Of a stretch of 64,000 nt of DNA, positions 25,927 through 64,000 are shown in pieces. The notes below the pieces were generated by a model. The model did no database searches. It saw nothing but the letters and a program-made list of their open reading frames with translations, and was not told the origin of the DNA. Every line of letters begins with the position of its first letter. Within the stretch, counting starts at the first letter, position 1. A program made the position numbers and the translations under genes. The stretch is from NCBI GenBank assembly GCA_944373145.1, contig CALWAL010000001.1, positions 64,105-128,104 of the forward strand, written 5' to 3'. Source of the stretch: an uncultured Bacilli bacterium (GTDB lineage Bacteria; Bacillota_I; Bacilli_A; RF39; UBA660).

Positions 25927-25939
25927 AAATTCACCTCCA

Positions 25940-26299: not shown

Positions 26300-26357
26300 T
26301 CCTATCCTATGCTAATCTAATATCTTTACTTAAGTATACCGATTTTTACTTAATAAA

Positions 26358-28079: not shown

Positions 28080-28112
28080 GACAACTCTCCTATCTAAAAA
28101 TATTATATCATC

Positions 28113-28148
28113 AAAAAAAAGAAGCGCAAAATAAATTTACACTTCTTT
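28113..28148 (-). terminator. Rho-independent terminator after the esaB-like gene.
   Basis: AAGAAGTG-loop-CGCTTCTT hairpin followed by T8 on the minus strand. Confidence 0.55.
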
Positions 28149-28401
28149 ACAATAGCACTACACTCGTACCATTACGAATATTTGTATCACGTACCAACGT
28201 ATCAATAGGATAAATTTCACCGTTATTTCGGTCATATAAGTAAGTACGATTAGTTCCTATAAAAGAGCCATTTGTTATTTCATATAAAGATTTATTTAAA
28301 AGATTAATAATATTTCCTATTTTACGATTAACTGGGAAGTAAACATTATAAGTTTGATCAATAGCTGGAACAATTAGTTCTACTAAAACTTTATTTTTCA
28401 T
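28147..28401 (-). CDS. esaB: YukD/EsaB-like ubiquitin-fold T7SS protein.
   Basis: About 84 aa (MKNKVLVELIV...YNVYFP...NGTSVVLL), matching the YukD beta-grasp pattern. GGAGG RBS. The start overlaps the essC stop. Confidence 0.7.
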   Translation of the reverse strand: MKNKVLVELIVPAIDQTYNVYFPVNRKIGNIINLLNKSLYEITNGSFIGTNRTYLYDRNNGEIYPIDTLVRDTNIRNGTSVVLL

Positions 28402-31400: not shown

Positions 31401-33007
31401 TTATTTTCTAATAAATCTTTACGAGTTTTAAATTCACTCTCCAAAAAAGATGAAACTTCTTTTATTTCTTCTGCATTCGTAGCAAAAAAGCGTAAACTTT
31501 TGTCATCATTAAAACAGTATGGTGAATACTTTAAATAGTTCCAACGCGATTGATTTTTTTCATTAGTTAAAATAACTATTTTTAGATCGCCACCACTATG
31601 AAGCGCTAAAAGTTGAACCATCAAACCATTAATATAATCGTTTTTACGATTAGCACTACAAATAAAGGCTGAAATTTTTTTATCGATCAAAGAAATATTA
31701 ATAGGAACATCGACTAATTTTTTATGACGATCGACAATTGTATAAACTCGTTTTAATAAATCATCATCATCTAAAGTAAACTTTTCCTTAGGTGCCACAA
31801 TATGCAATGGAGTGTTAACACTTCCTAATCCTAAGCGCAATTTCAAAAAATCATCATCAGATATGTTCCTTCCCCAAAAATTACGATTATTAACAGAGTT
31901 TATAACGTTAACGCAACCATTAGCGGTTAAACTGTTATCGCGCATAATTTGGGCCTGTTTTTTCATAATCATTATAATTTTTTCTTCTTTTTCATCTAAA
32001 TAATCGTTGTATTTACGAATGCGAAGTTCTTCTCTTTCTGCTCTTTTCTTTTTATGGTAAGCTGATGCCATTTTAGGAATAATTAAACTTCCAACAATCA
32101 TTGCAATACATAAGACAATTTGCGGCAAAGCCGACATGATGGTTCTTGTCCCTGTCATCAATCCGTAACCAACATTATATCCCATAACAAGTGAAGAGGC
32201 TCCCATCGTAATACTACTACCGATTGTCAACCAAAACGGTGTATCTTCTTCTTTTTCGGAAGCTGGTGGAGCATCTATTTCCAATTCTTCTTCTTCAACT
32301 ACTTCTCTAATTCTTGGTGTATGAAAAAAATAATCATCGTCGTCATATAAATCCATTGATTGCTGTTCATCACTAACTGGAGTATATTCTTGATTAGTTT
32401 GAGCAGGTTGATAAGTATAAGCATTCAAGCCTGCCACTGTTACCAATTTATTTGGATTATTAATTTGAATAAAATGTTGCATCCAAACAATTTTTAAACC
32501 TTTAATAAAAATTGTATCTCCGGCATGTAAAACTGCTTTTGTAACGCGATTGCCATTTAAATAAGTAGCATCATTAGCGTTTATAAACCAATTTTGACCT
32601 TCATATGTAATAAGTGCATGACTAGATGCAATGTTATTATTATGGTAACAAATATTGCAATTATTTTCTTTACCTATTAAAAGTTGTTTTAGGCCTTTAA
32701 ATTCTAATTTATAAGTTTCAACCTCAACAGTAGGTAGTGCATATAATACAATATTTTCTTGGCTAGAAACAACTTTCAAGTCATAAGAACCATAATCAAT
32801 TAAAGATGCTTCGTCCGAAAATGTAGAATTGTTTACAACATCAACACTACCATTGCTTTTAATTTTCCACTTACCTTGATCAGCTTCAAACGATAAAATA
32901 CAATCTTTACCCTTGCTCGTTTTATGGTTAACAACGAAAGAATCTTCAATCTTTGAAGGCAATTCATATTTAAATATTTTATCTTCTTCAACTAAAAATA
33001 TTCGCAT
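28391..33007 (-). CDS. essC: Type VII secretion FtsK/SpoIIIE-family ATPase EssC.
   Basis: About 1538 aa. N-terminal tandem FHA-like region. TM segments (ITMGASSLVMGY..., IVLCIAMIVGSLIIP). Three P-loop domains (GSTGSGKSE; GQPGAGKEN; a third degenerate). Start set at the ATG with 8-nt spacing from AGGAG. Confidence 0.88.
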   Translation of the reverse strand: MRIFLVEEDKIFKYELPSKIEDSFVVNHKTSKGKDCILSFEADQGKWKIKSNGSVDVVNNSTFSDEASLIDYGSYDLKVVSSQENIVLYALPTVEVETYKLEFKGLKQLLIGKENNCNICYHNNNIASSHALITYEGQNWFINANDATYLNGNRVTKAVLHAGDTIFIKGLKIVWMQHFIQINNPNKLVTVAGLNAYTYQPAQTNQEYTPVSDEQQSMDLYDDDDYFFHTPRIREVVEEEELEIDAPPASEKEEDTPFWLTIGSSITMGASSLVMGYNVGYGLMTGTRTIMSALPQIVLCIAMIVGSLIIPKMASAYHKKKRAEREELRIRKYNDYLDEKEEKIIMIMKKQAQIMRDNSLTANGCVNVINSVNNRNFWGRNISDDDFLKLRLGLGSVNTPLHIVAPKEKFTLDDDDLLKRVYTIVDRHKKLVDVPINISLIDKKISAFICSANRKNDYINGLMVQLLALHSGGDLKIVILTNEKNQSRWNYLKYSPYCFNDDKSLRFFATNAEEIKEVSSFLESEFKTRKDLLENKVKDKSEAEDIKKTDEYKNFLPYYLIICDDYKSSDEAPIISNILKYADTNYGFSIAIFSSTMKNLPAKCESFIEIGDNEGCILESNINSSNQIVFKTEYLDNADMEYLCQKVNNIPLLSKEGISVLPNSISFLEMLNVSKIEQLNVLNRWQTNNPVNSLNTTIGVHASGEQFKLNLHEKFHGPHGLIAGSTGSGKSEFIITYILSMCVNYHPYEVQFVLIDYKGGGLAGAFENKELGVRIPHLAGTITNLDTASMNRTLVSIESELKRRQRIFNETRDVLGESTIDIYKYQRLYREGQVKEPMAHLFIISDEFAELKSQQPEFMQQLIQTARIGRSLGVHLILATQKPSGVVNDQIWSNSKFKVCLKVQDRADSMEMLKRPEAASIKETGRFYLQVGYDDYFAKGQSGWAGAKYVPSDRVIKKIDDSIDFIDNVGNVTKSIKDLIKIETDNTNYGDQLTNIVKYIYNLGKKENLKTSTLWLDPIPEEIFVDEIKKKYHYKPTPYHINPVIGEYDNPSQQEQGILTLDLMNGNAIIWGQPGAGKENLVQTILWSASLEHTPDEINFYVIDCGSEALKTFNKMPHIGEIATTEEQDKILGILMMIDEEIERRKELMADYGGSYKEYIENSGNKLPLIVTIINNYEIFSENYARVAESIQTFYRDGNKYGISFIITSISTSTVKLRMLQNFSHKLCLQIPNETEYRNLVGAIKGQLPTKYFGRGLVAKDSKAYEFQTALITTKKEINNLVRDTAKKLSQAYNVRAKKIPMVPEVVYFSSVKDNLNDLTNVPIGYAVESKTPYAYDLTASKFIPILFNKFDDNKFSFLSTFIKMVSLIDNLKINVIDFAAILSKRIDNVNYIQNNYDSEIIKLNNDIIKAKDKEVRTLNIFIGISEMKVKLSANGRVVLNSLFNNSSVINNSYYVFFDSYSAYKILQTEPWYQTNIDTAYGIWLDEGVATQLAINTSTITAEDGKTNFPYMGFAISRGKHTTIRYMVEDVEEGNDEK

Positions 33008-33118
33008 ACACACAACTCCTACTATTCTTCTATTATATATAACATATTATATCGAACTTTTTGGACTTTTACAATACATTATTCTTGCGGCAAAAACTAT
33101 TTAATGATATAGTAATTA

Positions 33119-45611: not shown

Positions 45612-45978
45612 AACAATAACATTTCATAAGCCATGTTCTGTACCTATAAGGTGGCAAACATTTATCTACCAATTGCTTGGTCCCTAACTTAGTTCAATTT
45701 CCTTGTTAAAGCTCCCCTACCAAAATTTGGGTTTCTCGCTCGTGGGGTTTACCGCGTTCCACTTATTCTATTTCTAAAATATATCGTCACTATGGCACTT
45801 TTATACCTAATATAACCATATCATAAAGACTTAGGTTACCTCGGAGCCGTTAGCAAATGCTACTAAAGGTTATTTTTTCCCTTTACACGAACACTACAAA
45901 CATCGCAGTTTGTGCGAGCATGGACTTTCCTCTATATATCTATATGTAAATATACAGCGTTTGCCGAAATATTATTCT
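45612..45978 (-). ncRNA. rnpB: RNase P RNA, type B.
   Basis: The reverse complement contains AGAGGAAAGTCCATGCTCGCAC and GTGGAACGCGGTAAACCCCACGAGCGAGAAACCCAAATTTTGGTAGGGGA. Both are near-identical to B. subtilis rnpB. A P1 pairing between AAUAUUUCG (5') and UGAAAUGUU (3') defines the ends. Confidence 0.9.
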
Positions 45979-50453: not shown

Positions 50454-51917
50454 TTATATAACAATTGTAAATAAATTTCCAGAACCTTTATTAACTAATT
50501 TACCTAAAGTTTGTTGTAACTTAAATCGAACTCCTTCTGGTAATAGTGATAACTTAGCCTGAATTCCTTCTTTAACCATTTCATCTAAACCACGGCCAAA
50601 TATTTCACTTTTCCAAATATTTTCTTTATCTTTCATTAAATAATCAATTAATTCTTTACTTTGAACTTCAGAACCAATAATTGGTTCAAAAGTCGATTCT
50701 ACATCAACACGAATCATATGAATAGAAGGTGCTACCGCCTTTAGGCGAATACCATAGCGACTACCCTGTTTAATAACCTCGGGTGTTTCTAATTTCATAT
50801 CAGCTAGAGTTGGACTAGCAACTCCATATCCTGTTGTTTTAACCATACTTAAAGCACTTTTAATCTGATCATATTCTACTTTCGCTTCATTATATTCTTG
50901 AAATAAAGCAATAATATCAGCCCTACTATTTACATCAACACCAACAATTTCTTTTAAAATTTGATTATATAACTCATCAGGAGCATGAAGATTAATTGTT
51001 ACAACTCCCGTTGAAGTATTTACCTCAGAAATATATGAACGATTTATATATTCACATGCTTCAAAATGTTTAGTAATTGTATCAATATCTCTTAATTTAT
51101 CAACTTCAACAACACTTTCTTTAATTTTATCAATATATATTTTCTTTAACCAATTATCAGGTTTTAGAGAAGCAATCCAATCAGGCATATTAACCTCTAC
51201 TTCTAAAACTGGGAATTCATATAAAGCTTCTCTTAAAATATTATAAACATCTTTTTCATTTAAATTTTCTACGCTAACTGGCATAACTGGCACATTATAA
51301 CTCTCACGCATCTTATCAGCTAGATTAATCGTATCTGGTAGCATTGGATGAGCTGAATTTAATAATACAATAAATGGCTTACCAATACTTTTTAATTCAC
51401 TAATAACTCTTTCTTCTGCTTCAATATAACTACTACGACTAATTTCTCCAAAAGAAGCATCAGTAGTTACAACAATACCAATACTAGAATGATCTTTAAT
51501 AACCTTCTCTGTTCCAATCTCAGCTGCTTCAACAAACGGTATTTCATCATCATACCAAGGTGTTCTAACCATTCTTGGACCATTTTCATCTTCATAGCCT
51601 TTTGCTCCCTCAACTACATACCCAACACAATCAACTAATCTAACACTAGCACTAAAATCATCAATCTTAATACTAGCTGCATTACTAGGAACAAATTTAG
51701 GCTCAGTTGTCATAATTGTTTTACCTTGAGCTGATTGTGGTATCTCATCTAAACATCTTTTTCTTTCATACTCATCTTCAATATTAGGCACCACTAAATT
51801 TTCAATAAACTTTTTAATAAAAGTACTCTTACCAGTTCTAACGGCTCCTACTACTCCAAGATATAAATCTCCACCGGTTCTTTCCGTAATACTTTTAATA
51901 ATATCTACTTTTTCCAT
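50454..51917 (-). CDS. spoIVA: Stage IV sporulation protein A (spore coat morphogenetic ATPase).
   Basis: MEKVDIIKSITERTGGDLYLGVVGAVRTGKSTFIKKF is near-identical to the B. subtilis SpoIVA N-terminus. About 487 aa. A CATATAT sigma-E-like -10 lies about 30 nt upstream. Confidence 0.9.
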   Translation of the reverse strand: MEKVDIIKSITERTGGDLYLGVVGAVRTGKSTFIKKFIENLVVPNIEDEYERKRCLDEIPQSAQGKTIMTTEPKFVPSNAASIKIDDFSASVRLVDCVGYVVEGAKGYEDENGPRMVRTPWYDDEIPFVEAAEIGTEKVIKDHSSIGIVVTTDASFGEISRSSYIEAEERVISELKSIGKPFIVLLNSAHPMLPDTINLADKMRESYNVPVMPVSVENLNEKDVYNILREALYEFPVLEVEVNMPDWIASLKPDNWLKKIYIDKIKESVVEVDKLRDIDTITKHFEACEYINRSYISEVNTSTGVVTINLHAPDELYNQILKEIVGVDVNSRADIIALFQEYNEAKVEYDQIKSALSMVKTTGYGVASPTLADMKLETPEVIKQGSRYGIRLKAVAPSIHMIRVDVESTFEPIIGSEVQSKELIDYLMKDKENIWKSEIFGRGLDEMVKEGIQAKLSLLPEGVRFKLQQTLGKLVNKGSGNLFTIVI

Positions 51918-52003
51918 ATATGACCTACTTTCTTTCATTAAAATATATGTTTACAATAAAAAGATAGAACAAAAAAAGAAGTACAATCATTAAAGATTGC
52001 CTT

Positions 52004-52831
52004 CTAAAATTTAATTAATAATCTTTGTCCTGCTTTAATTAAATTAGGATTATCTCCAATAATATCTTTATTTTCTTCATATAAATCTTTCCAATATACT
52101 TTATACTTCATCGCTATATCCCATAAAGTATCTCCTTTTTGAACTATATAATATTTATTATCATTGCTTAATATTTCATTAACCAAATCTTGTATCTCAT
52201 TATAATTATATCCTGCTTCTTCTAACCTTTTCTTTCGCATATTTCCATTATCCCATTTTCCTTGAATAACTTCCTTAGCAATTTCATTATTAGATTTTTT
52301 TAAATTATTACTTTTTTCTTCATAGATTTTCCATTCATATGAATTTTTAGATACTTTCACATCTGGATGTAAAAATAACGCTTTAGTTATATCATATTGA
52401 TTATTAATAAGCCAAGCATATGCTTTTACTTTTGGTTGATACTTTCCTTTATACCAACCAATTCCTTTAAATCTTCCTTTTCCTACTGCAATATGAATGT
52501 GACTACCAGTTACATTACCTTTTACTCCAGGTTGATAGTATATTTCACTTTGCTTTATCTTTTTATTAATGTATAAATCTGATACATCATTATCATGTAA
52601 TGTCATAATAGTCATATAATCAATTGTTCCATCAGCATATTCTACTTTATTTAAACTCTCTAACCATATGCCATTACAATTACTATATTTTCTTTTTATT
52701 TTACCAGTAAACGGAGCTTTTAAATATTTTAGTTTTGATATATCAATAGCTAAATCACCATTATGAGAAAAATTGCTATTCATATTTTGACTAATATATA
52801 AAACATCTACATTAAGTATAGCTTTCTCCAT
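52004..52831 (-). CDS. Peptidoglycan hydrolase: M23-like endopeptidase domain plus C-terminal LysM (endolysin-like).
   Basis: SHNGDLAID ... TGSHIHIA align with the M23 HxxxD ... HxH motifs (compare lysostaphin HYGVD ... HLHF). C-terminal LysM (YIVQKGDTLWDIAMKY...AGQRLLI). No signal peptide. Confidence 0.6.
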   Translation of the reverse strand: MEKAILNVDVLYISQNMNSNFSHNGDLAIDISKLKYLKAPFTGKIKRKYSNCNGIWLESLNKVEYADGTIDYMTIMTLHDNDVSDLYINKKIKQSEIYYQPGVKGNVTGSHIHIAVGKGRFKGIGWYKGKYQPKVKAYAWLINNQYDITKALFLHPDVKVSKNSYEWKIYEEKSNNLKKSNNEIAKEVIQGKWDNGNMRKKRLEEAGYNYNEIQDLVNEILSNDNKYYIVQKGDTLWDIAMKYKVYWKDLYEENKDIIGDNPNLIKAGQRLLIKF

Positions 52832-53024
52832 TTAACTTCTCCTGTATTAAATTTAAAACTGCACTTATTCCCATAGCAATCGCACCTACCATCATAGATT
52901 TAACTAGATCAAAATTAGATAAATCTGTAGTTGGTAAAACAACAATGATGCTTGCGATGAAGCCTTCTATAAATGTTTTAAGCACTTTGCCAAGTAACTT
53001 GTCGTTCAATATTTTCTTTAACAT
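52812..53024 (-). CDS. Holin-like small membrane protein (phiLC3-type topology).
   Basis: 70 aa. Basic N-terminus, two hydrophobic helices separated by a PTTDLSNF turn, polar C-terminus. Overlaps the lysin gene start. Confidence 0.5.
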   Translation of the reverse strand: MLKKILNDKLLGKVLKTFIEGFIASIIVVLPTTDLSNFDLVKSMMVGAIAMGISAVLNLIQEKLNGESYT

Positions 53025-53391
53025 CTTCTACCTCCTTTAACTCACTAGGTAATTTATATAATTCATCAACCATATTTTTAGCAAATATATCACCTTCAAA
53101 GTGTTGATAATTCCTATAAATTTCACTAATATTATCTTTCATATAATTAGGACAGTATCCTAATTCCATATATTTTTCATATATTCTAATAATTTCATTT
53201 TTTAGTAATGCTTTTAAGCCATTTTTTAAACTCATATAACCTTTTAACATATAAGCTACACTAGAACTTATAATTGTAAAAAGTATCTCTAACCAATACT
53301 TTAAAATAAACTCAATCATATATATCACCTCTTCAAGATAAAAATGGAGATATCGCTTGATATCTCCGAAATAAAACCTAAAAATTTTCAT
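52978..53391 (-). CDS. Small membrane protein of phage-lysis-cassette type (XhlA/BhlA-like?). The true start is probably the internal MIEFILKY.
   Basis: N-terminal TM (WLEILFTIISSSVAYML) followed by a charged helical tail. Sits directly upstream of the holin-like gene. Confidence 0.35.
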   Translation of the reverse strand: MKIFRFYFGDIKRYLHFYLEEVIYMIEFILKYWLEILFTIISSSVAYMLKGYMSLKNGLKALLKNEIIRIYEKYMELGYCPNYMKDNISEIYRNYQHFEGDIFAKNMVDELYKLPSELKEVEDVKENIERQVTWQSA

Positions 53392-53821
53392 CTATGATGT
53401 ATATAAAATTACTATTATATGGCCATAAAATATGCAATCGATCTCGCCCATTATTAGCAGTTTCATAATAATATAAGCATTTTTCATCTATTCGTGGAAT
53501 ATTTTTTTCTAAATTTAACTCATTCATAAATATTTCATTCAATAAAACTTTTTTTTCTTCTTCAATATACCTCCATTCAAGTTTTAGAAGTTCTTTCTTC
53601 TTATTGTCGTCAGCATATTCATAAACACTATACTTAGTATAATCAGAAAAATAAAATTTCTCCTGATAATATATTACATAGTCAGGCACCGGAATCTTAA
53701 CTTCATACTTTATTTTCATTTTTTCATAATGGCTTAGCATATGATTATTATCAACAGATACGAATAAAATACTAAGACAAATCATAACTAAAACAAATAT
53801 TAAAAAAAGAAATTTTTTCAT
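53378..53821 (-). CDS. Candidate Rhs-toxin immunity protein (membrane-anchored or secreted, 147 aa).
   Basis: Located immediately 3' of the Rhs toxin gene. N-terminal signal/TM (FLFLIFVLVMICLSILFV). Confidence 0.45.
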   Translation of the reverse strand: MKKFLFLIFVLVMICLSILFVSVDNNHMLSHYEKMKIKYEVKIPVPDYVIYYQEKFYFSDYTKYSVYEYADDNKKKELLKLEWRYIEEEKKVLLNEIFMNELNLEKNIPRIDEKCLYYYETANNGRDRLHILWPYNSNFIYIIDENF

Positions 53822-53842
53822 TGAATCACCCTTGAATAATTT

Positions 53843-56800
53843 TTACCATTCATAATTGCATTTGCTAACATCACCAATAATATAAATTGAAAAATCGGTT
53901 TCCCAATAATATGGGGTTAAAATACCCATATCTTGCCACATATACCCCAAATTATTAGCAAATCCAGAAAAAGTACTATCATCTCGCCATTCATCAAAAT
54001 CATATGTATCATATACCTTAACATCAATAAACCAAACATCTTCACACTTTTCTGATTGATAACCATATATTTCAAAATTTGCTTTTCCAACCCCGTTTTT
54101 CAAATTAGATGTTGAAGAAAAATTTTTACTTGAAACAACAGTAAATTTGCCATTTTTACTGTTTTTGATGCCCTTGCTTATTTCTTCATTTATCTCTTTA
54201 GAACTTCCTAACTCGTTGGTTAACTCAATATAAATATCAGTCGACAATTTTTTTCCTTTTCCTTTGGCTGAATGATTCAACATTTTACTAGCTAATTCAA
54301 CCTTTTCAAATTTAGATAAAAAATAATTTCCTATTTTTATTGCTAATTTAGTCAACCATCTAATTCCAAAACCATTTTTATCTATGTTATTAATATAGTC
54401 GTTGCTACAATAAGCATATAAATTTAGGCTCATTATATCTTGATTAGAGGCCATAATACCATCTGCGTTTAAAAATCTACCAAATGTAGTACTGTAATAT
54501 CTACTATTTAAATAATATAAGTTAGTTTCATTATCATAATAGTAACTCCTATATCTAAATGGATTTATAATACCTATATGATTACTATCTGTGATATCAT
54601 TACCATTACTATCTTTAATAGATAATATGTTTCCCCAACTGTCATATCGATATTTAACTATTAAATTACAATTACTATCCAATATTCCTATAATATCTTT
54701 TTGTATATTTTTAACATAATAGTACACATCATTATTATATTTAAAACCTATCAAATCGTCCATACTATTACGTATATAGTATATCACATTATTATTTCTT
54801 TTTTCAAATATAATTGATGTTCCCTCAAGATAATATTCGGTTTTTACTCCATTTACTGTTTTACCAATTCTAATACCATTACTATTATATTTGTAAGTGT
54901 TATTATTATAACTATTTAATTGTCTACCATTTATCCATGTTAATGTATTATTTCCAATTGTTAATGGATTACCTATATCATCATAGGAAATTGTTAAATC
55001 ATTAAATTTAGTTAACTGATCTTTCCAATTAGAATTATTGTACTCATATTTATCTTCTAATTTAATATCATAATTATTCATATCTAGTACTTTTCTATTT
55101 AAGATATTTCCAAATTTATCATAGGTATATTTGATAATTTCTTTATCAATATAATTATTCTCTTCAATTAATTGATTATATTTATCATATCTATACTCAT
55201 TTTCCAAAATGTTATTATGATATATATGTGTGATATTATTTAACTTATCATACTTATATTTATAAATATCATTATTATTTTTTATACTATCGATTAATAA
55301 AGATGTTCTATTACCATTTGTTAAATATGTGTATGTTGTATTAAAAACATTGCTAATATTTCTATTTATTAATCTTCCTAATGAATCATAATTATAATTA
55401 ATACTATTATTATCAAATTCAGTTTTTACAATTGCATCTTCTTTATTTAAAATATTAGTAATACTATTCTGAACGTTATCTAAACTGTGTTCTTTACCGA
55501 TTACATTATCGCAAGTATCATAAATATATTTTACTTCAAATTCATTAAATTTATATAAATTTAATTTTTGTGACAAATCATACGCATATTTATAAATATC
55601 ACTATTAGTTTCTAATTTAACTAGATTACCTTGATTATCATAACTATATTTATATGTATCATTTGATTTAATTATTGTTTTAACTCTATCGAAATTATCA
55701 TATGCATAACTAATAATATGACCATTACCATATGTAGAAGATATCAGATTACCGTTATTTTCTTCATAATGGTTTGTAACTAAAGTAATATTATCTCCAA
55801 TTTTAATTTCTTTAATGTTTAAAAATTCATCATAAACAAAATTATATTCTTTATCATCATCTTTTATTTTAGATAATACATTATTAGAATTATAGGTATA
55901 ATTTATTTTTTTATCACCTTGATTAATTTCAATAACTCTCTTTTTATCATCATAAGTGTAAGAGGTTACTTTTCCTTTAGGATTAGTTATTGAATTTAGT
56001 AATCCAGTCAGTAAATCAATATCATATGTCATTTTGTTTAAATTAGAATCTGTTACACTTTTTATAAATTTACTATCTTCAGTGTATTCAGCACTACTTT
56101 CAATAAATTCATTTTCTATAGTTTCAATGTAAAATTCAAAATTTGGATCCTGTTCTATTAACTCTGATATAAATAGAATATTATTTTCTCTTTTAATATA
56201 TCTAGGCAAATTACTTTCAACTGTATCATTTTCATCGCGATATAATTGGAAATAATAGCTTCCATTTTCTTGCTCTATTAATTTAAATAGTGAATTATTT
56301 AAATTATTTGGAGCTAATACAATCTGATTAGATGTAGCAGTAAAATAATTATCGCCTATTACATTATGATTAATTGTATAATAGCCATTTTCTAATAAGG
56401 TAAATTGCCATAAATCATGATTACACTCCTCATCATCAAAAACAATTGCTTTATTGATATTTTTTAAATAATCATTAGTTCCTTTACATCTAATACGATA
56501 TAAACCATTAGTTATTTCATTTGGAATTTTGTTAACAATTTTAGTAATAATCGGATTGCCAAAACTATCATACTTAATGGTATTATTAATTCCAGTTTCT
56601 GAGATTCCATTTAAAATACGTTCTGACTTTAAATTATCATATTCGTATTTTAAATTTTTTCCTTGCGGATCAGTCATTTTGATCAATTGATTGTTTGAAT
56701 CATATTTAAAATTACTTGTCTCATTTGATAAATTTGATATTGTTGATACGTTACCATTTCCATCATAATTATAATTGATTTCTCTAGGATCTTTAAACAT

Positions 56801-59800
56801 ACAAATATTTGTAATATACATATCGTTAAAATTTAAAGCTTGATTAAATTCTAATGTTATACCATCATAATCTAGCATAGCTACAAAAGTGTAACGATAA
56901 TATTGCCATTCTTCGCATTTAGAATTAATTTTATCTGGCATAAGTATTCCTGTACCCAAATCAGATTCTTCAATGTAATTAAATCCTACACTTACACTAT
57001 TTTGAATACTATCGTATAAATCAATACCTGTTATACCTTCATTTTTATACCAAAAAGATACTTCATAAACATCTCCTGTTTTCCCTTTAATTGGAAAGAT
57101 TTTAGAAATTGTTGAATTCTTAGTCGGTGCCATTGATATTTTAAGTGCTTTATCATCATTATCATTAATTGACACAACATTAAAACATTCACTATTATCA
57201 ATAGTTGTAATTTCAGAGTCCTCTGTTGGGCCACTAGGACTTAATTCACTATATTCACTAGCACTTAATGTCCAATCAGAATATCCTAAAGAAAAGTCGG
57301 AATTAGATAGCATATTATAATTATTTACTATCTCTCCTTCTTCTAATTGAATATCATCAATATAAAAAGTTGTGCTGTCAGGTAATATAAATCTTATTTT
57401 TAAACTAGAGATTGCTTCTTCAGGATAAAAGATAGTTATATCGTGTCGTTTAAATTCATCAGATGCTTTAATAATTTCTTCTTTTACTACACTATCATAT
57501 GATAATGATAATGTTATATTTTGATTATTTTTAATATAAGCACTGAAAGTATAATATTTACCCTTTGATACATTTACTTCTTGATAAAAATTAGAAGTTG
57601 CTTTTAAACTTTTTAAACCATTATTTACATATTCTGTAGATAATGTTAATTCATTTTCTTCTGTTATAAAATTAATTGTATTTTCTTCAAAACTTGTATT
57701 AGATAGTAAATTATTAACATACTTAATTGGCATATATGAGTCAATTACTTTATTTTTATATGGATTGCTTGAATCAACTACTTCAGTCTCCAAATATCTA
57801 TTAGCTATAGAATAAGCACCTTTTAAATTAGTACTATCAATTAGACTACTACTAGATATTAAATTACCATTATTATTAAAAGTCATTGTTTGAACTCTAT
57901 TTTTATTATCTTTAATAGTTGTTGTATTATACGAATATGTCATGTCAAATGATTGACCTAAAGTATCATTAATACTATACTCTGATACTTTTTTAATACG
58001 ATATGGTATTTGATCATAATATTCATATTTTATCTTTAATCCATTAATATCTGTAATATACTCAATTAAAGAATTAGAATTATATGTGAACATAGTTTGT
58101 CCTAATAAATTAGTAATATTAACTAATTTATTATTTTCATGATTTAACGTTACTGTTTCATCGGTACTCACTATAACAATACTATTTTCATTATAAATTA
58201 TATTAATTTCTGAATTATTAGGATCAATTACTTTAGTAATTCTATTGTTATCATCATAAATAACTTGTATTACTTTATTTTCGGTATCAGTAATAATTGA
58301 TAAGTACCCTATATCATTAATAATATTAAACGATGATATATTACCATATTTATCTATCATATTATATTTAGATTCTGCTTTAGTAATTGTTAAATTTAAA
58401 CCATCTTCATCAATATAATTACCTGTCGACTTATCATTTTCATCTAATTGTTCTTGAAAATAGTGAATAGTCCCATCGGCATCTATATATTTTAAATAAT
58501 TTATTTCCTCAGTAGTTTCGCCTTCCTCGGGTATTTGAATTAGTTGATGGTAATTAAATTTATATCCCTTACCAACTCCATAATCATTATCCAAAATAAC
58601 ATCATTAGTGTTATAAATTAAATTCAAACTTACAGTATTCTTTTCGGCGACAGTTCTTCCAATCTGAAATTGCCCTACTAAATTACCATTATAAGTATTA
58701 ATATTAGTATCTCCGATAGAATAACTTTGAGGTATATAATTCATATAACTTTCTAAGCCATTTTGATTTCGATAATGAATTATAAGTGTAGGAGCTAAAG
58801 ATTCATTAACATTAGAAAAAAACGCAGGGTATAATTCATCTTCATATTCTTCATTATGTGATTTTACCATCAATCCATAGTTAGGAGTACCTGAATACCA
58901 TTTTTTAACTAAATTCGTTATATCCATTTCAAGACTTCTTAATTCAACTATTTCATAAGTATTATCCCTAATAATCCAAGCACTTCTAGCTGAATATGAA
59001 TAGTTTTCTAATTTAGGATCATATTTATTGTTCATTATAGTCCAGTTTGCTGTATTCTCATTCCAATCTTGCGTTAGTCTATGAACATCAACTACATTCC
59101 AATCTATTTTTTCCAATGCTAGTGGCCCATCTCCATAATTATATAAGTTTAAGTATGACTTGATAATTTGACTTCCTGTTCCTATAGTTGGCAAATCAAA
59201 TTTTATTAAAGTTCTATTAATTATATCTTGATTATTAATTCGCTCAACACCAGCTTTTAATATATTTTGACTATTTTTATCTTTTCCTGTATCTCCTGGA
59301 TAAATATAAGTGTCATACACTTTACCTTCTTGAGTTGTATTTGTAATTATCGGATCTATGATAACTGGATATGAAGTAAGATTTAACCATTCTTCATCAA
59401 GTACTAAATCTAATAGATATCCTACTTCATTTTGTATCAAATTATAATGAATATTATAATTAATATTTTGATTATTATCTATCATGAACAATGGTTCAAA
59501 AGTAAATATACATTTATCGTTTTCTTTTGCATCTATTTTTTTATCATTAACTACTAAGTTTAAATTAGTTTTAATCAAGAAACTAATTTTATCAATATTA
59601 TTATTTTTTAAAATAATATTTTCTTTTACTTTAGTAGGTAATAATGAATATTCTAAATCAATGCCAGGTAAGATATCTTCATAAATTACTTTTTTATCTA
59701 AAAATTTACCTTTAACATTATTTTGATCGTTTAACTTAATTTCTAAAAAATAGTCATCTTTAATCATTTTCATAAGAAGTAGATTAGTATTTTCCATAAA

Positions 59801-59995
59801 CTGAACAATATAATCATTATTCTTATTTTTGTAATAATTGTTTTCTTTAATAAGAGTATTGTCTATTTCTTCATATTTATTACTTTTTTTAAAGTGGACT
59901 GGATTGCTATATACTTTAGCAATCATTTCTCCGTTTTCTTGTAAAAAATGTTTTTCCTTTTCTTTTCTCAAACCAACTATTTCAATTTCTTTCAT
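53843..59995 (-). CDS. Rhs/YD-repeat polymorphic toxin, 2050 aa, with no signal peptide.
   Basis: Many YD repeats (YxYDxxGN). Rhs core terminus ...NPFRYRSYYYDNETNLYYLNSRYYSTTFGRFLNADG. About 220-aa C-terminal variable domain. DNRLRE-like N-terminal region. Lectin-like internal modules. Strong RBS (TAGGAGG-N6-ATG). Confidence 0.85.
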   Translation of the reverse strand: MKEIEIVGLRKEKEKHFLQENGEMIAKVYSNPVHFKKSNKYEEIDNTLIKENNYYKNKNNDYIVQFMENTNLLLMKMIKDDYFLEIKLNDQNNVKGKFLDKKVIYEDILPGIDLEYSLLPTKVKENIILKNNNIDKISFLIKTNLNLVVNDKKIDAKENDKCIFTFEPLFMIDNNQNINYNIHYNLIQNEVGYLLDLVLDEEWLNLTSYPVIIDPIITNTTQEGKVYDTYIYPGDTGKDKNSQNILKAGVERINNQDIINRTLIKFDLPTIGTGSQIIKSYLNLYNYGDGPLALEKIDWNVVDVHRLTQDWNENTANWTIMNNKYDPKLENYSYSARSAWIIRDNTYEIVELRSLEMDITNLVKKWYSGTPNYGLMVKSHNEEYEDELYPAFFSNVNESLAPTLIIHYRNQNGLESYMNYIPQSYSIGDTNINTYNGNLVGQFQIGRTVAEKNTVSLNLIYNTNDVILDNDYGVGKGYKFNYHQLIQIPEEGETTEEINYLKYIDADGTIHYFQEQLDENDKSTGNYIDEDGLNLTITKAESKYNMIDKYGNISSFNIINDIGYLSIITDTENKVIQVIYDDNNRITKVIDPNNSEINIIYNENSIVIVSTDETVTLNHENNKLVNITNLLGQTMFTYNSNSLIEYITDINGLKIKYEYYDQIPYRIKKVSEYSINDTLGQSFDMTYSYNTTTIKDNKNRVQTMTFNNNGNLISSSSLIDSTNLKGAYSIANRYLETEVVDSSNPYKNKVIDSYMPIKYVNNLLSNTSFEENTINFITEENELTLSTEYVNNGLKSLKATSNFYQEVNVSKGKYYTFSAYIKNNQNITLSLSYDSVVKEEIIKASDEFKRHDITIFYPEEAISSLKIRFILPDSTTFYIDDIQLEEGEIVNNYNMLSNSDFSLGYSDWTLSASEYSELSPSGPTEDSEITTIDNSECFNVVSINDNDDKALKISMAPTKNSTISKIFPIKGKTGDVYEVSFWYKNEGITGIDLYDSIQNSVSVGFNYIEESDLGTGILMPDKINSKCEEWQYYRYTFVAMLDYDGITLEFNQALNFNDMYITNICMFKDPREINYNYDGNGNVSTISNLSNETSNFKYDSNNQLIKMTDPQGKNLKYEYDNLKSERILNGISETGINNTIKYDSFGNPIITKIVNKIPNEITNGLYRIRCKGTNDYLKNINKAIVFDDEECNHDLWQFTLLENGYYTINHNVIGDNYFTATSNQIVLAPNNLNNSLFKLIEQENGSYYFQLYRDENDTVESNLPRYIKRENNILFISELIEQDPNFEFYIETIENEFIESSAEYTEDSKFIKSVTDSNLNKMTYDIDLLTGLLNSITNPKGKVTSYTYDDKKRVIEINQGDKKINYTYNSNNVLSKIKDDDKEYNFVYDEFLNIKEIKIGDNITLVTNHYEENNGNLISSTYGNGHIISYAYDNFDRVKTIIKSNDTYKYSYDNQGNLVKLETNSDIYKYAYDLSQKLNLYKFNEFEVKYIYDTCDNVIGKEHSLDNVQNSITNILNKEDAIVKTEFDNNSINYNYDSLGRLINRNISNVFNTTYTYLTNGNRTSLLIDSIKNNNDIYKYKYDKLNNITHIYHNNILENEYRYDKYNQLIEENNYIDKEIIKYTYDKFGNILNRKVLDMNNYDIKLEDKYEYNNSNWKDQLTKFNDLTISYDDIGNPLTIGNNTLTWINGRQLNSYNNNTYKYNSNGIRIGKTVNGVKTEYYLEGTSIIFEKRNNNVIYYIRNSMDDLIGFKYNNDVYYYVKNIQKDIIGILDSNCNLIVKYRYDSWGNILSIKDSNGNDITDSNHIGIINPFRYRSYYYDNETNLYYLNSRYYSTTFGRFLNADGIMASNQDIMSLNLYAYCSNDYINNIDKNGFGIRWLTKLAIKIGNYFLSKFEKVELASKMLNHSAKGKGKKLSTDIYIELTNELGSSKEINEEISKGIKNSKNGKFTVVSSKNFSSTSNLKNGVGKANFEIYGYQSEKCEDVWFIDVKVYDTYDFDEWRDDSTFSGFANNLGYMWQDMGILTPYYWETDFSIYIIGDVSKCNYEW

Positions 59996-60015
59996 AGTCT
60001 ACCTCCTAGTCAATT

Positions 60016-61191
60016 CTAAGCAACTCTTTTCCATAAAAATTTATCACAGTAGCTATCTATCATTAAATCTTTAGCAAGTGTAATGTTAAACATCAAATAA
60101 TAAGATTTACCACTAGATGTTGAAGTATTATTAAATACATCTATTTGAGTCACTGTACCATTAGAGTATCCAACATTATATACAATTCCTGTATTACTAG
60201 CATCACTATAAGCTAATAATCCAAATAAACTCATACCCAAAGAAACTATTCCAAGATTTGATAAATTAAAGGAACCTAATTCACAACTATTATCGTTTAA
60301 AATTTTATTCACAGTAACTAATTGCCTAACATATAAATTATGTCCAGATCGGCATATATAGCAAGTACTACCTGATACATTAGTACCTGGAGTGAAATAT
60401 GTGGTATCACTAACTGAATTAATTGTTGATTGAAATTCTTTATCTATCAATTCCCATAATCCACCAAAATAGTTTGTTGGATTATTATTAGTATTAGAAG
60501 TATATATACTTCCAACTGGATAAGCATTTAAAATATCAAAAGTTGGATTATTATTACTAGTAATGCTATTAACAACTAAATTTCCATTTGCATCCAAACT
60601 AAACTTATTATTTTTAGATGTAATACAATCAACAGTAGCGTTATTAACTTCTAAATTTAATTTATTTTCTGTTTTAGTAAATGCATCTTTAAAATAAATA
60701 TCTTCTAATGAAAAATCGCCTTTATTTTTATATTTGTGATTTGCATAAATAGCATTGTTTAAAAAATATTTATTCATATCATTGTTTTTAGGATAAATAA
60801 CTTCGATATCAGCACCACTATAATTTGTATAAATATAGTTAGTACCTTCAAATAAACAAACTAATAGAGTATCAACTTCCTCTACTGTTTCATCTAATCT
60901 AGTGACAGTAGTTTTCATTGCAATATCATTATCTTTAACTACTAAATTCATTTTAAATACATCGCTAGACTCACTAAACTGTAAAGCATTACTTAAATTA
61001 AAAATATATTCCCTTCTATTTTCTGTAGGAGTTGTAGAATTTTGTGTATCTACATATACAATTAAATCATTTGAAGTTGGCACTACAGTTGCACTATTTC
61101 TTTTTACTTGTAATTCTAATAATGGTGCATCTAAAGAATCATTAATAACTAATTCTCCTACACCGGTTAATTTTTGATCATCTAAATTCAT
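60016..61191 (-). CDS. Phage tail-collar/tail-fiber-like protein (391 aa).
   Basis: C-terminal AYPVGSIYTSNTNNNPTNYFGGLWELI resembles the phage tail collar domain consensus (PvGtI...P.G.L.CdG). Asn/Thr-rich beta region. No signal peptide. Lies 20 nt upstream of the Rhs gene. Confidence 0.45.
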   Translation of the reverse strand: MNLDDQKLTGVGELVINDSLDAPLLELQVKRNSATVVPTSNDLIVYVDTQNSTTPTENRREYIFNLSNALQFSESSDVFKMNLVVKDNDIAMKTTVTRLDETVEEVDTLLVCLFEGTNYIYTNYSGADIEVIYPKNNDMNKYFLNNAIYANHKYKNKGDFSLEDIYFKDAFTKTENKLNLEVNNATVDCITSKNNKFSLDANGNLVVNSITSNNNPTFDILNAYPVGSIYTSNTNNNPTNYFGGLWELIDKEFQSTINSVSDTTYFTPGTNVSGSTCYICRSGHNLYVRQLVTVNKILNDNSCELGSFNLSNLGIVSLGMSLFGLLAYSDASNTGIVYNVGYSNGTVTQIDVFNNTSTSSGKSYYLMFNITLAKDLMIDSYCDKFLWKRVA

Positions 61192-61573
61192 TTGTTTTTC
61201 CCTCCTTATTAATCAAAAATTTCTTCACTTCACAATTAAGCGGTTGATAGCTAATCAACTCCATAGGGATTCCACCTTCTTGAGTTTCACAAGACTACTA
61301 GAATAGAAGTATCATTATTGCTATTGTTTGTTATCGCATTATTAATAGCTACTTAATATTTATAACCAAGTATTAATCGCAAGCGTACTTGTTAACGTGC
61401 TAGAACAATAGGAATGTACTTAATTGTGTATATTAAATTGTCAAAGAGCATATATAGAGAAGGAATCTTTTATCAATAGTCACTTTAAATGAATAATCAA
61501 AATATAAAAAAAGGTATATAGTGATAATTTTATTCCTTCACTATATACCTCACTAAAAAGCTAAAAGTATAGT

Positions 61574-62032
61574 CTAAAATTTTAAATTTTTTAATATTCT
61601 TTTTAAACCGGCATTTATACTAAACTTTATTGCCATTTTTGTACAGTTCTCAATTTGAGCAATTTCCTCCAAAGTCATTTCTTCAAAATAATATAACTTT
61701 AATCTCTTTTTTTGAACTTCTGGTAATTTTTCTATTTCTTGATAAAGTCTTTCATAAACAATTTTTTCTAATACTATATCTTCTAATAGTTTTTGTTGAC
61801 CTTTAACTTTATGATATAAAATCTCATCACAGTATTCATATGAGACAAGATGGCGATCATATTCGTTCATTTCTTTTATTGTATCTAATTCAAATTGATT
61901 AAACTCTTTATATAATTCATCACTTATTTTTATTGATTGCTTATTACCCCTACTATCTATAAAAGTTAGCAAATGATCAACTTCCAATGTGTATGGATTG
62001 TCCTTTACTTTTCTTCTTTTTGGTAAATTCAT
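61574..62032 (-). CDS. Sigma-70 region-4-like HTH regulator (TcdR/UviA- or Tn916 Orf7-like small sigma-type protein).
   Basis: C-terminal KKRLKLYYFEEMTLEEIAQIENCTKMAIKFSINAGLKRILKNL matches the sigma region 4.2 pattern (compare TcdR ...KLYY...SRQ..NK...ALRKL). No convincing region 2. Confidence 0.5.
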   Translation of the reverse strand: MNLPKRRKVKDNPYTLEVDHLLTFIDSRGNKQSIKISDELYKEFNQFELDTIKEMNEYDRHLVSYEYCDEILYHKVKGQQKLLEDIVLEKIVYERLYQEIEKLPEVQKKRLKLYYFEEMTLEEIAQIENCTKMAIKFSINAGLKRILKNLKF

Positions 62033-62251: not shown

Positions 62252-62977
62252 TTACCAAGTTCCAGACCAAGTAACACTTGCTTGTGATATCTCATCAAAA
62301 TAATCTAAAACGGAACTATCATATTGAATCCCTGCATTACTAATATTAAAGTTTCGTGCTTGAGTTGTAGTCACTGTTCGAATAGCATGAGAATAGTCAC
62401 CAGAAGCTTGTTGAGCAATAACTGTAGAAGAAGGGTTTCTTTTTTCTACATCAAAATAAAATGTCTGCTCAAGAGATTCTAAATCACCACTTGGAACTTT
62501 AAAAGTTGCTGCCGAACCCGTATCTGTTATTTTTTCATAATATGAACTAATAGTTCTACAATCATCATCCACTGGACAATATGTTTGGCTAAAATGAGTA
62601 GAACCTCTTATGATAACGCTACTATAATGTCCAATACCGATTGTATCATAACTTCTTACTTTAGGAATATTACGCCATTCTAACGTAGCTTTATATCTAT
62701 AATAATTACCATTAGTTAAAAGATAAGTAGTTAGCTTTTTATAAGTAGTTATAGTACTAGTGGAGGCTAATGGCATAATATTTGGATTAAAAGCTTCGTA
62801 TTCCTCCTGAGTAATTTCCTCTGTAATAGCATAATTACTAGAAGCTCTTGTCAAATTAGAGTCATATATTGTTGTCTTAAAATATTTTTCTTCTTTTGAT
62901 ATTTCTTCAAATTTCAAAGCATTTCCAGTGATTGGCAGAGCAAATAATAATGCTAACATAATTAAAATTTTTTTCAT
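62252..62977 (-). CDS. Secreted protein of unknown function (signal peptide).
   Basis: MKKILIMLALLFALPITGNA signal sequence. Thr/Ser-rich. Confidence 0.5.
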   Translation of the reverse strand: MKKILIMLALLFALPITGNALKFEEISKEEKYFKTTIYDSNLTRASSNYAITEEITQEEYEAFNPNIMPLASTSTITTYKKLTTYLLTNGNYYRYKATLEWRNIPKVRSYDTIGIGHYSSVIIRGSTHFSQTYCPVDDDCRTISSYYEKITDTGSAATFKVPSGDLESLEQTFYFDVEKRNPSSTVIAQQASGDYSHAIRTVTTTQARNFNISNAGIQYDSSVLDYFDEISQASVTWSGTW

Positions 62978-63088: not shown

Positions 63089-63823
63089 TTATTTGGATTC
63101 AACCAAATATAAATCAAATGAAATATCTTGAATTTTATCATTTTCTTTATATTCAATATATAATATCAAATTATCTAACAATATTAAATCTTCAGAATTC
63201 TTTAACAATTCATCGACATATAATGTATATGTTTCTAAAAAATCACGCAATTTCATTTCTTTGTCAAAATTATATATCTCATTTTTTATTATTTTATCAT
63301 TGGAAAGCAACTTTACATAGTATGATTTAGAACTAATCTCATCTGTTGTTCCTTCATTATAGTCACTGTATTCTATATTTCTTAACACTATAATATTTCT
63401 ATGCGGATTTAATACTACTATCCCCTCTAAATTTAAATTACTATTACTAGAATAAACTTTAAATACTTTATATTGATTATACTTATTAATCGAAAAAAAT
63501 AATATTGAAAGTAAAAGTATAATTAAAATAGCTATTATAGCAGATATTAATATTCTTTTCTTACCTCTATTGTTGTAATACTTTAATGCTTCTATATTTA
63601 TATCTTTTTCTAAATTTCTTTCACCATTCAATAATTCTTTTACACTAATGTCTAATTTCTCACTTAAATCATTAAGAATAGAAATATCTGGTGCATTTTT
63701 TCCAGTTTCCCATCGACTTACAGTTTTATCATTTACCCCAAGCATCTCTCCAAGCTTTGCTTGAGTTAAATCTTTTTCTTTTCTTAAATTTGCTATAAAT
63801 GTTCCTACTTTATTTAAATCCAT
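63089..63823 (-). CDS. Membrane-anchored XRE-family HTH regulator with an extracytoplasmic C-terminal domain.
   Basis: N-terminal HTH (LRKEKDLTQAKLGEMLGVNDKTVSRWETGKNAPD). Single TM (ILISAIIAILIILLLSILFF). About 130-aa outside domain. Confidence 0.65.
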   Translation of the reverse strand: MDLNKVGTFIANLRKEKDLTQAKLGEMLGVNDKTVSRWETGKNAPDISILNDLSEKLDISVKELLNGERNLEKDINIEALKYYNNRGKKRILISAIIAILIILLLSILFFSINKYNQYKVFKVYSSNSNLNLEGIVVLNPHRNIIVLRNIEYSDYNEGTTDEISSKSYYVKLLSNDKIIKNEIYNFDKEMKLRDFLETYTLYVDELLKNSEDLILLDNLILYIEYKENDKIQDISFDLYLVESK

Positions 63824-63840: not shown

Positions 63841-64000
63841 CTAATCTTCTCTATCTAAATCTTTAAATACATCATCTTGAAAAAATGTAGAAACCGATGT
63901 TCCAATACCATCGCAAATTCTTATGATAGTTAATATTTTAGGATTTTTACTTCTACCTTCCACAATATGTTGAATGGTACTTTGAGTTAAGCAACACATA
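63841..64000 (-). CDS. XRE-family HTH protein; partial, the N-terminus lies beyond the window.
   Basis: Own translation: ...CLTQSTIQHIVEGRSKNPKILTIIRICDGIGTSVSTFF..., a typical HTH_XRE helix 3-5. Confidence 0.5.
   Translation of the reverse strand, partial: MCCLTQSTIQHIVEGRSKNPKILTIIRICDGIGTSVSTFFQDDVFKDLDRED

Follow-up and report, generated by a model that had tools for sequence, protein, structure and literature searches.

A signal-less Rhs toxin with a tail-fibre-like partner beside a phage-type lysis cassette in uncultured gut Bacilli: a candidate for lysis-dependent release

INTRODUCTION

How Gram-positive bacteria export Rhs toxins that carry no secretion signal is an open question. 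It is raised by an island of about 10 kb on the minus strand of a 64,000-nucleotide stretch of DNA from an uncultured Bacilli bacterium (GenBank assembly GCA_944373145.1, contig CALWAL010000001.1, positions 64,105 to 128,104). This stretch, called the window below, is part of a 199-kb metagenome scaffold. The island encodes a large Rhs protein without an export signal, a phage tail-fibre-like protein (FIB), a putative immunity protein and a phage-type lysis cassette, together with a small sigma-like regulator (SIG). All eight open reading frames that a preliminary description had placed here were present on the minus strand, in the order and at the positions proposed. The island genes are phage-derived parts. 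From sequence comparisons we consider it reasonably probable that the island is a domesticated phage late operon, which makes and releases a cytoplasmically folded Rhs toxin together with FIB. The signal-less Rhs-FIB pair stands beside a holin and a wall hydrolase, and this pairing is repeated in many species, which suggests that the toxin exits by controlled lysis.

Lysis-cassette release of Rhs-shell Tc toxins and holin-dependent release of large clostridial toxins are already established. In Yersinia entomophaga and Y. enterocolitica, a lysis cassette sets the Tc (ABC) toxins free, a route named type 10 secretion (T10SS) (PMC10847048, PMC9718411), and TcdE-type holins release the large clostridial toxins (PMC8878733, PMC12485765). 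The preliminary description had called the attachment of such a route to an Rhs toxin in a Gram-positive spore-former a new pairing. This was overstated, because the Tc toxins released in this way in Yersinia belong to the Rhs family (PMC10847048).

RESULTS

Rhs toxin and immunity protein

The toxin gene (53843-59995; all island features are given on the minus strand) encodes a signal-less Rhs/YD polymorphic toxin of 2050 amino acids (aa) and 235 kDa, with matches to RHS_repeat (E=1.9e-32), YD repeats (TIGR01643) and Rhs_assc_core. The Rhs-associated core was located at aa 1784-1875 (TIGR03696, 58.2 bits compared with a cut-off of 32.5), before a variable C-terminal toxin domain (aa 1876-2050; 53846-54370). 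A putative immunity protein of 147 aa (53378-53821) was assigned by its position; its N-terminus is hydrophobic and could serve as signal or anchor. No Pfam or PDB match was obtained for the toxin domain or the immunity protein. All three features tested for Rhs/YD polymorphic toxins were found, namely YD/RHS repeats, a core before the toxin domain, and a variable toxin and immunity region with orphan cassettes.

At the N-terminus of Rhs, no hydrophobic stretch, no Sec, Tat or lipoprotein signal and no LXG or WXG100 match (Pfam) was detected. The preliminary description was accurate here, as it was for the strong ribosome binding site (TAGGAGGT, 7 nt before the ATG). The first 410 residues were predicted to be all-beta and include a DNRLRE/CBM96-type carbohydrate-binding module (aa 228-406; 58778-59314; NF033679, E=9.5e-21), for which Foldseek returned the CBM96 structures 7vbo and 8wab with TM scores of 0.64-0.67.

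Tail-fibre-like protein

FIB (391 aa; 60016-61191) resembles phage tail-fibre and receptor-binding proteins and matched Pfam Gp10_C (PF21939, E=1.5e-8). It had been described as phage-tail-collar-like. The phage tail or fibre character was borne out by its predicted fold, but the family was not, as no match to Phage_tail_collar (PF07484, "Collar") was found. In the structure model (pLDDT 80), a beta-sandwich at the N-terminus is followed by a helix, a stalk of low prediction quality and a C-terminal domain; the model resembles phage tail proteins and viral fibres in a viral structure library. A Foldseek search of the whole protein against PDB was discarded; it yielded spurious multi-domain matches, such as coronavirus spikes, and more was learned from the viral library. 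An all-beta structure is predicted for the FIB N-terminus, which, like that of Rhs, carries no Sec, Tat or other export signal. Among homologues the N-terminal 230 aa are conserved and the C-terminus is variable (alignment A4), and many homologues end in the classical tip motifs YPxGSIY...HxH...NMPPY...WKR. The conserved N-terminus, the variable tip motifs and the fibre-like fold follow the pattern of a receptor-binding protein and suggest a role in targeting. In 25 species (L024, L027, L032-L034, L036, L038 and others) a helical protein of 105-158 aa (cluster c5), which matches no family, is encoded between FIB and Rhs; it is absent from the window.

Lysis cassette

Downstream of the immunity gene, three genes overlap by 47 and 20 nt in the manner of phage genomes. 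The trio is conserved in other species. Its first member, p113 (113 aa; 52978-53319), is a phage protein with one N-terminal transmembrane (TM) segment. Its sole match was phrog_4105 (E=4e-10), a PHROG of unknown function. The claim that this protein is XhlA-like was rejected, since the XhlA profile (PF10779) gave no match even at E<=1; Pfam and PDB gave none either. Searches of phages by tblastn with p113 and FIB returned few and weak matches, all in unannotated or "hypothetical" genes.

The second gene (52812-53024) encodes a putative class-II-like holin of 70 aa with two TM segments, assigned by a weak match to the holin family phrog_443 (E=1.6e-3). It overlaps the lysin gene, and sister loci carry confident holins. 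It did not match the TcdE family (PF05105/TIGR01593), and neither it nor the 113-aa protein matched the BhlA/UviB family in Pfam.

The third gene (52004-52831) encodes an endolysin of 275 aa with endolysin PHROG matches, an M23/LAS-like endopeptidase domain, CW_7 (3.6e-19) and LysM (6.4e-13). Its N-terminus (MEKAILNVD) is not hydrophobic, and the wall hydrolase carries no signal peptide of its own. The N-terminal domain matched the endopeptidase domain of phi29 gp13 (PDB 3csq, E=1.4e-11), with the H..D (SHNGD) and HxH (SHIH) motifs aligned. The catalytic domain gave no Pfam M23 match at E<=0.01 and a weak match to zoocin A, and its homologue P0245 carries PF01551. Of the M23+LysM architecture described before, LysM and a gp13/M23-like domain were recovered, but not a Pfam M23 match, and CW_7 has to be added. 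The gp13 match supports the name M23 at the level of the LAS/M23 fold.

Strain variation and orphan cassettes

The island was compared with seven other contigs of the same species. In all seven, the order Rhs, immunity gene, p113, holin and lysin is kept as far as each contig reaches. The five contigs that reach upstream all encode a secreted 241-aa protein (described below), the sigma-like protein and FIB, and the five that reach downstream all end in spoIVA. In all strains seen the island occupies one fixed site, beside spoIVA.

Pairwise comparison shows a mosaic along this site. Between strains the upstream flank is 96-97% identical and the downstream flank through spoIVA 91.5-99.4%. The lysis genes are intact, with a conservation of 91-99%, in contrast to the variable toxin end. 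FIB shows no similarity between strains after about residue 230, and none was seen from the C-terminal toxin domain through the immunity gene. The C-terminal toxins and immunity genes of the strains are unrelated to one another, with proteins of 193-247 aa in place of the window's immunity protein. The lack of similarity at the FIB tip and at the toxin end indicates that both are exchangeable. Homology restarts 12-25 nt before the p113 start codon. The 5' end of p113 serves as the downstream homology arm, and the lysis cassette forms the fixed downstream arm of toxin-cassette exchange. The Rhs core has a DNA identity of only 76-82% between strains (53843-59995 compared with L004-L006) and diverges far more than the flanks (91-99%). 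This suggests that distant alleles were imported or that the shell itself is under diversifying selection.

Two orphan cassettes, each with an Rhs C-terminus and an immunity gene, were found just past the window end (L001, 864-5490; L002, 6126-10774). Each is bracketed by a 260-nt copy of the p113 start, part of a lysin gene that has diverged, and the 3'-terminal portion of an Rhs core, and the array is followed by a second copy of p113 and the holin gene with a truncated lysin gene. Because the orphan cassettes are bracketed by p113 and lysin fragments, toxin and lysis genes would move together. The array lies upstream of the island; rhs orphans are usually found downstream. The tandem partial duplication upstream of the island also suggests repeated integration. 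This orphan array had not been noticed in the preliminary description, which also did not mention the invariant presence of FIB (80 of 80 loci, see below) and a type VII EssC gene in the window.

Recurrence in other species

Homology to the Rhs N-terminus was used to fetch 80 loci from 80 species-level genomes. The broad alignment of this region (A1) was too diverse for the locus search, and a closer subset (A2) was used. According to the record titles, the 80 are uncultured gut metagenome-assembled genomes, mostly of Bacilli, with a few Muribaculaceae, Bacteroides or Roseburia. The Rhs family was present in at least 126 species-level genomes, compared with only 2 of 2.9 million viral contigs.

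A FIB homologue was directly upstream of Rhs in every one of the 80 loci. Holin or lysin genes were detected by clustering and profile searches in at least 37 of the 80 and in 30 of the 45 loci with at least 3 kb on both flanks. The count of 37 is a lower bound, as the L021 species was scored negative and yet has a lysis cassette 7 kb downstream, behind about eleven immunity-like genes. Where a lysis gene lay within 5 kb (34 loci), it was only upstream of FIB in 15 cases and only downstream of the immunity genes in 19, nearly always on the strand of the island. The density of lysis cassettes was 34 per 610 kb within 5 kb, compared with 1 per 242 kb at greater distances. Kept in other strains and repeated across species, the arrangement is not due to chance.

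The associated families comprise the window-type holin, Phage_holin_4_1/TIGR01593, three other small holins, the M23-like lysin and a GH25+LysM lysin. These non-homologous holins and lysins beside FIB-Rhs appear to have been recruited independently. Holins of the TcdE family (PF05105/TIGR01593) were found in the loci of 12 sister species; the Phage_holin_4_1/TIGR01593 ("toxin secretion/phage lysis") domain has been reported for TcdE-like proteins (PMC8878733).

The annotated recurrent gene clusters in the flanks were mostly housekeeping genes, with some regulators and mobile-element genes. Phage tail genes were present upstream in only three species (L073, L077 and L078); L099 is a copy of the L077 locus on a viral contig. 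In L049, L067 and L071, FIB-Rhs lies beside conjugation-type genes, labelled by eye as a VirB4-like ATPase, a small protein with a TM segment and a large membrane protein resembling a conjugative wall hydrolase. The ATPase, the sole one of the cluster searched with profiles, had the terminase large subunit as its best PHROG match, and L071 also encodes a large serine recombinase. This suggests that some FIB-Rhs copies ride on integrative conjugative elements. In L016 (9356-18738) the Rhs gene is split (428 + 1552 aa), the sigma-like gene is missing, and genes of the membrane-anchored regulator and the 241-aa protein types (see below) are downstream instead of upstream. This locus may be a decaying or rearranged copy.

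Contexts of the lysin

In a reverse test, the contexts of five sampled relatives of the window lysin were inspected. Three of the five were in Rhs islands. P0207 and P0240 were accompanied by FIB, and the P0260 loci start inside the Rhs gene, with FIB out of view. P0259 belongs to an ordinary siphovirus prophage. P0203, which is 64% identical, occupies one chromosomal site but has two different settings there. The cargo in L100 and L102 is a signal-less wall hydrolase of 800 aa (PG_binding_1 and an Rv2525c-like glycoside-hydrolase domain) with a lipoprotein, and there is no FIB-Rhs. The frame around this cargo consists of a serine recombinase, a helix-turn-helix (HTH) gene, a membrane-anchored HTH regulator gene, a relative of the 241-aa protein gene, a sigma-like gene, a p113-like gene, a holin and the lysin. 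In L101, which comes from another sample, the P0203-type cassette ends a contractile-tail (myovirus-type) prophage. This prophage (1-10801) also encodes a reverse transcriptase, possibly of a diversity-generating retroelement; the L100 island is at 2728-10801.

The use of the P0203 cassette with other cargo and in a prophage indicates that the cassette is phage-derived and not specific for Rhs. The proposed tie between lysis cassette and Rhs holds insofar as the two co-occur in many species, in two arrangements and with non-homologous families. It does not hold as an exclusive bond, since close homologues serve other signal-less cargo and a real prophage at loci that lack Rhs. This agrees in part with one of the outcomes that the preliminary description had named as refuting its proposal. 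Their sharing of the cassette points to a general release frame, and the regulator and lysis genes together look like a frame that can be reused to express and release cargo without export signals.

Regulatory genes, leader and terminators

SIG (152 aa; 61574-62032) was recognized by Sigma70_r4_2 (E=2.7e-9), and its alignment to SigW covers residues 68-184 only, that is, region 4 and a short part before it. No match to sigma region 2 was found, and a match to the ECF superfamily stayed below the cut-off (model positions 85-165). The assignment as a region-4-like regulator was correct, but the group-5 sigma factors of the C. difficile pathogenicity locus (PaLoc) have regions 2 and 4, and membership in the TcdR family was rejected because no region 2 was recognizable. 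SIG may be a true sigma factor or an activator. A homologue is encoded upstream of FIB in 28-30 of the 80 loci.

Three further genes on the minus strand complete the regulatory block. The first encodes a small XRE-type HTH regulator of 79 aa (63841-64000; Pfam HTH_3; L001, 5916-6155), which is truncated at the end of the window. Next comes a membrane-anchored XRE-family regulator of 244 aa (63089-63823; HTH_3, E=1e-13) with an HTH domain, one TM segment and an outer domain. Homologues of the latter occur in 20 of the 80 loci and in the non-Rhs island L100. The third is the secreted 241-aa protein (62252-62977), which has a signal peptide and a C-terminal WSGTW and gave no Pfam, PHROG or PDB match. 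It pairs with the membrane-anchored regulator: homologues of the two adjoin in L016, L020-22, L100 and other loci.

The leader between SIG and FIB measured 382 nt (61192-61573), close to the 380 nt described before. It contains an intrinsic-terminator-like hairpin after SIG (61504-61551; 14 bp and a U-run, -18.3 kcal/mol, z=-3.5). A promoter-like block, TGCGAT-N16-AATGATAC(TTC), follows at 61306-61338, with an exact 11-mer in about 20 species. In these it is nearly invariant, always 3' of the sigma-like gene and mostly directly 5' of FIB. The relaxed pattern had a high background (21 matches in shuffled loci), and only near-exact matches were counted. The structured 5' leader (61238-61318) contains the Rfam pemK RNA motif (RF02913; 61261-61318; 47.1 bits compared with a gathering score of 34.8) and a further hairpin. 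Compensatory changes affect 5 of 6 pairs in the last leader hairpin.

The Rfam dinG motif also matches the leader, below its gathering score. The unpaired conserved 5' part of the pemK (and dinG) motif overlaps the DNA-level promoter-like block (61261-61338; L012-L074, alignment A3). Since it coincides with a block that always follows a sigma-region-4 gene, the pemK/dinG motifs may partly describe the promoter of mobile-element regulators, rather than only an RNA.

Downstream of the immunity gene, and ahead of the lysis cassette, stands a second terminator-like hairpin (53346-53367; -17 kcal/mol, z=-3.1), within the variable cassette and just 5' of the conserved arm. There is no room for a promoter between this hairpin and the lysis genes. 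Taken together, this suggests attenuated read-through into the lysis genes, with the hairpin as a possible attenuator. The island ends in a terminator hairpin with U7 (51970-52005; -10.9 kcal/mol, z=-4.0) just before spoIVA.

Flanking genes and the type VII locus

The GC content is 22-28% across the island and slightly higher elsewhere in the window. Within 10 kb of the island lie iPGM and GTPase genes on the upstream side (locus L002), the orphan cassettes, spoIVA on the downstream side, PBP1A and recU. With no gene between them, the gene 3' of the lysin is spoIVA (SpoIVA, 50454-51938). A role of the cassette in mother-cell lysis, which this neighbour might imply, was rejected, as a SpoIVA homologue was found in only 2 of 80 loci of other species. 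A bacterial RNase P RNA of class B (45622-45972, minus strand; 289.7 bits) fits a Bacillota chromosome.

No capsid, terminase, portal or tail gene and no integrase was found within 10 kb on either side of the island, and a megablast search of the island against phage genomes gave no match. With housekeeping flanks, an ordinary prophage around the island was therefore rejected. A decayed prophage had been offered before as an alternative; the parts are phage-derived, no prophage is seen beside them, and the lysis genes are intact.

A type VIIb secretion (T7SS) locus lies in the same window (22471-33013, minus strand). Its EssC (1540 aa; 28391-33013) scored 951 bits against TIGR03928, compared with an equivalog cut-off of 778, and has FHA and FtsK/SpoIIIE domains. 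After EssC, the locus encodes a 116-aa protein, a 573-aa membrane protein without a family match, six small helical proteins, of which two carry WXG motifs, and two DUF4176 proteins. EssA, EssB and EsaA were not recognized beside EssC. As for the features of T7SS substrates, Rhs has no helical LXG or WXG100 N-terminus (Pfam) and no adjacent genes for small helical partners.

DISCUSSION

The results are consistent with the following course of events. The regulatory block, with its two XRE-type regulators (one of them membrane-anchored), the secreted 241-aa protein and the sigma-region-4 protein, would turn on a dedicated promoter, TGCGAT-N16-AATGATAC, followed by the structured leader. Under the probable influence of the sigma-like protein, the genes of FIB, the 235-kDa signal-less Rhs and the immunity protein would be transcribed together, and read-through of the hairpin would reach p113, the holin and the M23-like endolysin. 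In a fraction of the cells, the membrane would then be opened by the holin and the wall cut by the endolysin, so that FIB and the Rhs shell, possibly as a complex, could exit by lysis or local breaching. Release probably takes place from a subpopulation of cells. Outside, the variable C-terminal tip of FIB and the carbohydrate-binding modules of Rhs may bind the surface of a competitor, and the C-terminal toxin would kill cells without a matching immunity protein.

Several observations weigh against this reading. The holin assignment in the window depends on a weak PHROG match (phrog_443, E=1.6e-3). The hairpin at 53346-53367 separates the toxin genes from the lysis genes, and none of the near-exact matches of the promoter-like block was located before a lysis cassette. 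At least 15 of the 45 usable loci had no lysis gene within reach, and L016 had none within 5 kb downstream. The cassette at the end of the L101 prophage means that the linkage of Rhs and lysis genes could partly reflect shared phage ancestry. Finally, EssC is encoded 20 kb from the island, which leaves the T7SS route formally open.

The main rival holds that the lysis cassette is a passive prophage remnant and that FIB-Rhs exits by another route, such as type VII secretion or an unknown exporter. The EssC score above the equivalog cut-off, the WXG-like and DUF4176 genes after it, the FIB-Rhs loci without nearby lysis genes and the occurrence of the cassette family in a true prophage all speak for it, and a predicted T7SS Rhs without a classical N-terminal domain has been discussed for Listeria (PMC12704120). 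However, the N-termini of Rhs and FIB are predicted to be all-beta and not of the helical LXG/WXG type of T7SSb substrates, the island has no genes for small helical partners, and EssA, EssB and EsaA were unrecognized beside EssC. Unrelated holin and lysin families at two positions are also poorly explained by decay alone, and the lysis genes have stayed intact, with 91-99% conservation between strains, next to a variable toxin end. We regard this explanation as unlikely. A different export mode is also conceivable, in which the holin and the hydrolase open membrane and wall locally and the producer survives, as proposed for TcdE/TcsE and ChiW/ChiX. Holin-dependent non-lytic release has been reported for large clostridial toxins and chitinases (PMC8878733, PMC9527704), and the hairpin before the lysis genes could hold their dose low. 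Unlike the truncated TcdL, however, the endolysin is complete: its catalytic domain is a full one of phage type and is joined to two modules that bind the wall. Moreover, lysis of a subpopulation is favoured by recent studies of Tc toxins and of C. difficile (PMC10847048, PMC12485765). Lytic and non-lytic modes are indistinguishable by sequence; on balance survival of the producer seems quite unlikely.

It is more doubtful still that the island is a mobile phage satellite or prophage moron, whose product is released only upon lysis by a helper or resident phage to the benefit of the mobile element. Such an origin would account for FIB-Rhs being placed 3' of tail genes, holin and lysin in L073, L077, L078 and L099, for the serine recombinase in L100, for the conjugation genes beside L049, L067 and L071, and for the repeated integration suggested by the tandem partial duplication. 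Against it stand the near absence of the Rhs family from viral contigs (2 of 2.9 million, compared with 126 matches in species genomes), the lack of a megablast phage match, the mostly housekeeping genes among the annotated recurrent flank genes, and the one fixed site beside spoIVA in all strains seen, without integrase or structural genes within 10 kb.

Controlled lysis by a domesticated late operon has a close likeness in the Tc/T10SS systems. There, too, the toxin is very large and signal-less and has an Rhs-type shell; a phage holin/endolysin cassette is encoded near it and releases it from a specialised subpopulation. The Tc system, however, is Gram-negative, requires a spanin, is aimed at insects and uses the TcA translocator. 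The island has one wall to cross and no spanin; its Rhs is of the polymorphic (interbacterial) type with immunity genes and orphan cassettes, and its partner is tail-fibre-like. By analogy, the island is best read as a Gram-positive counterpart of the lysis-cassette (T10SS) release of Tc toxins.

Other systems share parts of this organization. UviA/UviB, which control the bacteriocin BCN5 in Clostridium perfringens, combine a small sigma-type regulator and a holin-like protein linked to the release of a signal-less bacteriocin; unlike them, the island has no holin of the BhlA/UviB family, has an endolysin, and gave no support for UV/SOS control. In the defective prophage PBSX of Bacillus subtilis, the XRE repressor Xre and the small sigma-like activator Xpf control a late operon that leads to XhlA-XhlB-XlyA. 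The island resembles it in having an XRE regulator, a small sigma-like protein and a late operon that ends with tail fibre, small membrane protein, holin and lysin. It differs in the absence of head and tail genes, in the Rhs and immunity genes inserted between fibre and lysis genes, and in p113, which has no XhlA match. Colicin release is likewise tied to lysis of the producer, but colicin lysis proteins are small lipoproteins and not holin/endolysin pairs.

The C. difficile PaLoc (TcdR, TcdE, TcdL) and TcsE of P. sordellii likewise place a phage-derived regulator, holin and lysin around large signal-less toxins in a Gram-positive spore-former (PMC8878733, PMC12485765). The island differs from PaLoc in its holin family, in a complete lysin instead of a remnant, in a regulator with sigma region 4 only, and in an Rhs toxin instead of a glucosyltransferase. 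The wiring like PaLoc or UviA/UviB that had been proposed is an analogy and not homology, as SIG lacks sigma region 2 and the window holin is neither of the TcdE nor of the UviB family, although 12 sister species carry TcdE-family holins. The WapA/Rhs proteins of B. subtilis and S. suis are also Gram-positive Rhs proteins that combine a DNRLRE domain with a polymorphic toxin at the C-terminus and come with immunity genes. The Sec-dependent WapA, however, carries a signal peptide and is anchored in the wall by LysM or CWB repeats (PMC12704120), and the island Rhs has neither. In MuF toxins of temperate phages release is tied to phage functions, but the toxins are fused to a head protein inside complete prophages (PMC5576092).

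Full-text literature searches found no paper that describes a FIB-Rhs-lysis system, and no report was found of a Gram-positive interbacterial Rhs toxin with an obligate tail-fibre-like partner, a shared regulator-lysis frame and toxin exchange anchored in the lysis cassette. The word holin is absent from the accessible portion of a 2012 survey of polymorphic-toxin trafficking. A bolder proposal, which we advance only tentatively, is that the signal-less Rhs and FIB together make up a "tailless" bacteriocin of two parts. FIB, as a trimeric receptor-binding protein of phage type whose tip can be exchanged, would guide the Rhs shell to its targets, and a reusable phage-derived regulator-lysis frame, which also carries other signal-less cargo, would produce and release the pair. 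If true, polymorphic toxins would have a mode of delivery that has not been described before and that would be widespread among the uncultured Bacilli of the gut.

If release by a domesticated late operon holds, the interbacterial Rhs toxins of Gram-positive bacteria would join the Tc and large clostridial toxins as cargo released by lysis cassettes. The tail-fibre-like subunit with its swappable tips would then be a candidate determinant of host range, and the portable frame for expression and release could be used to find other signal-less toxins. The Rhs family, present in 126 or more species-level genomes from little-studied Bacilli of the gut, may therefore shape the competition between strains in animal guts.

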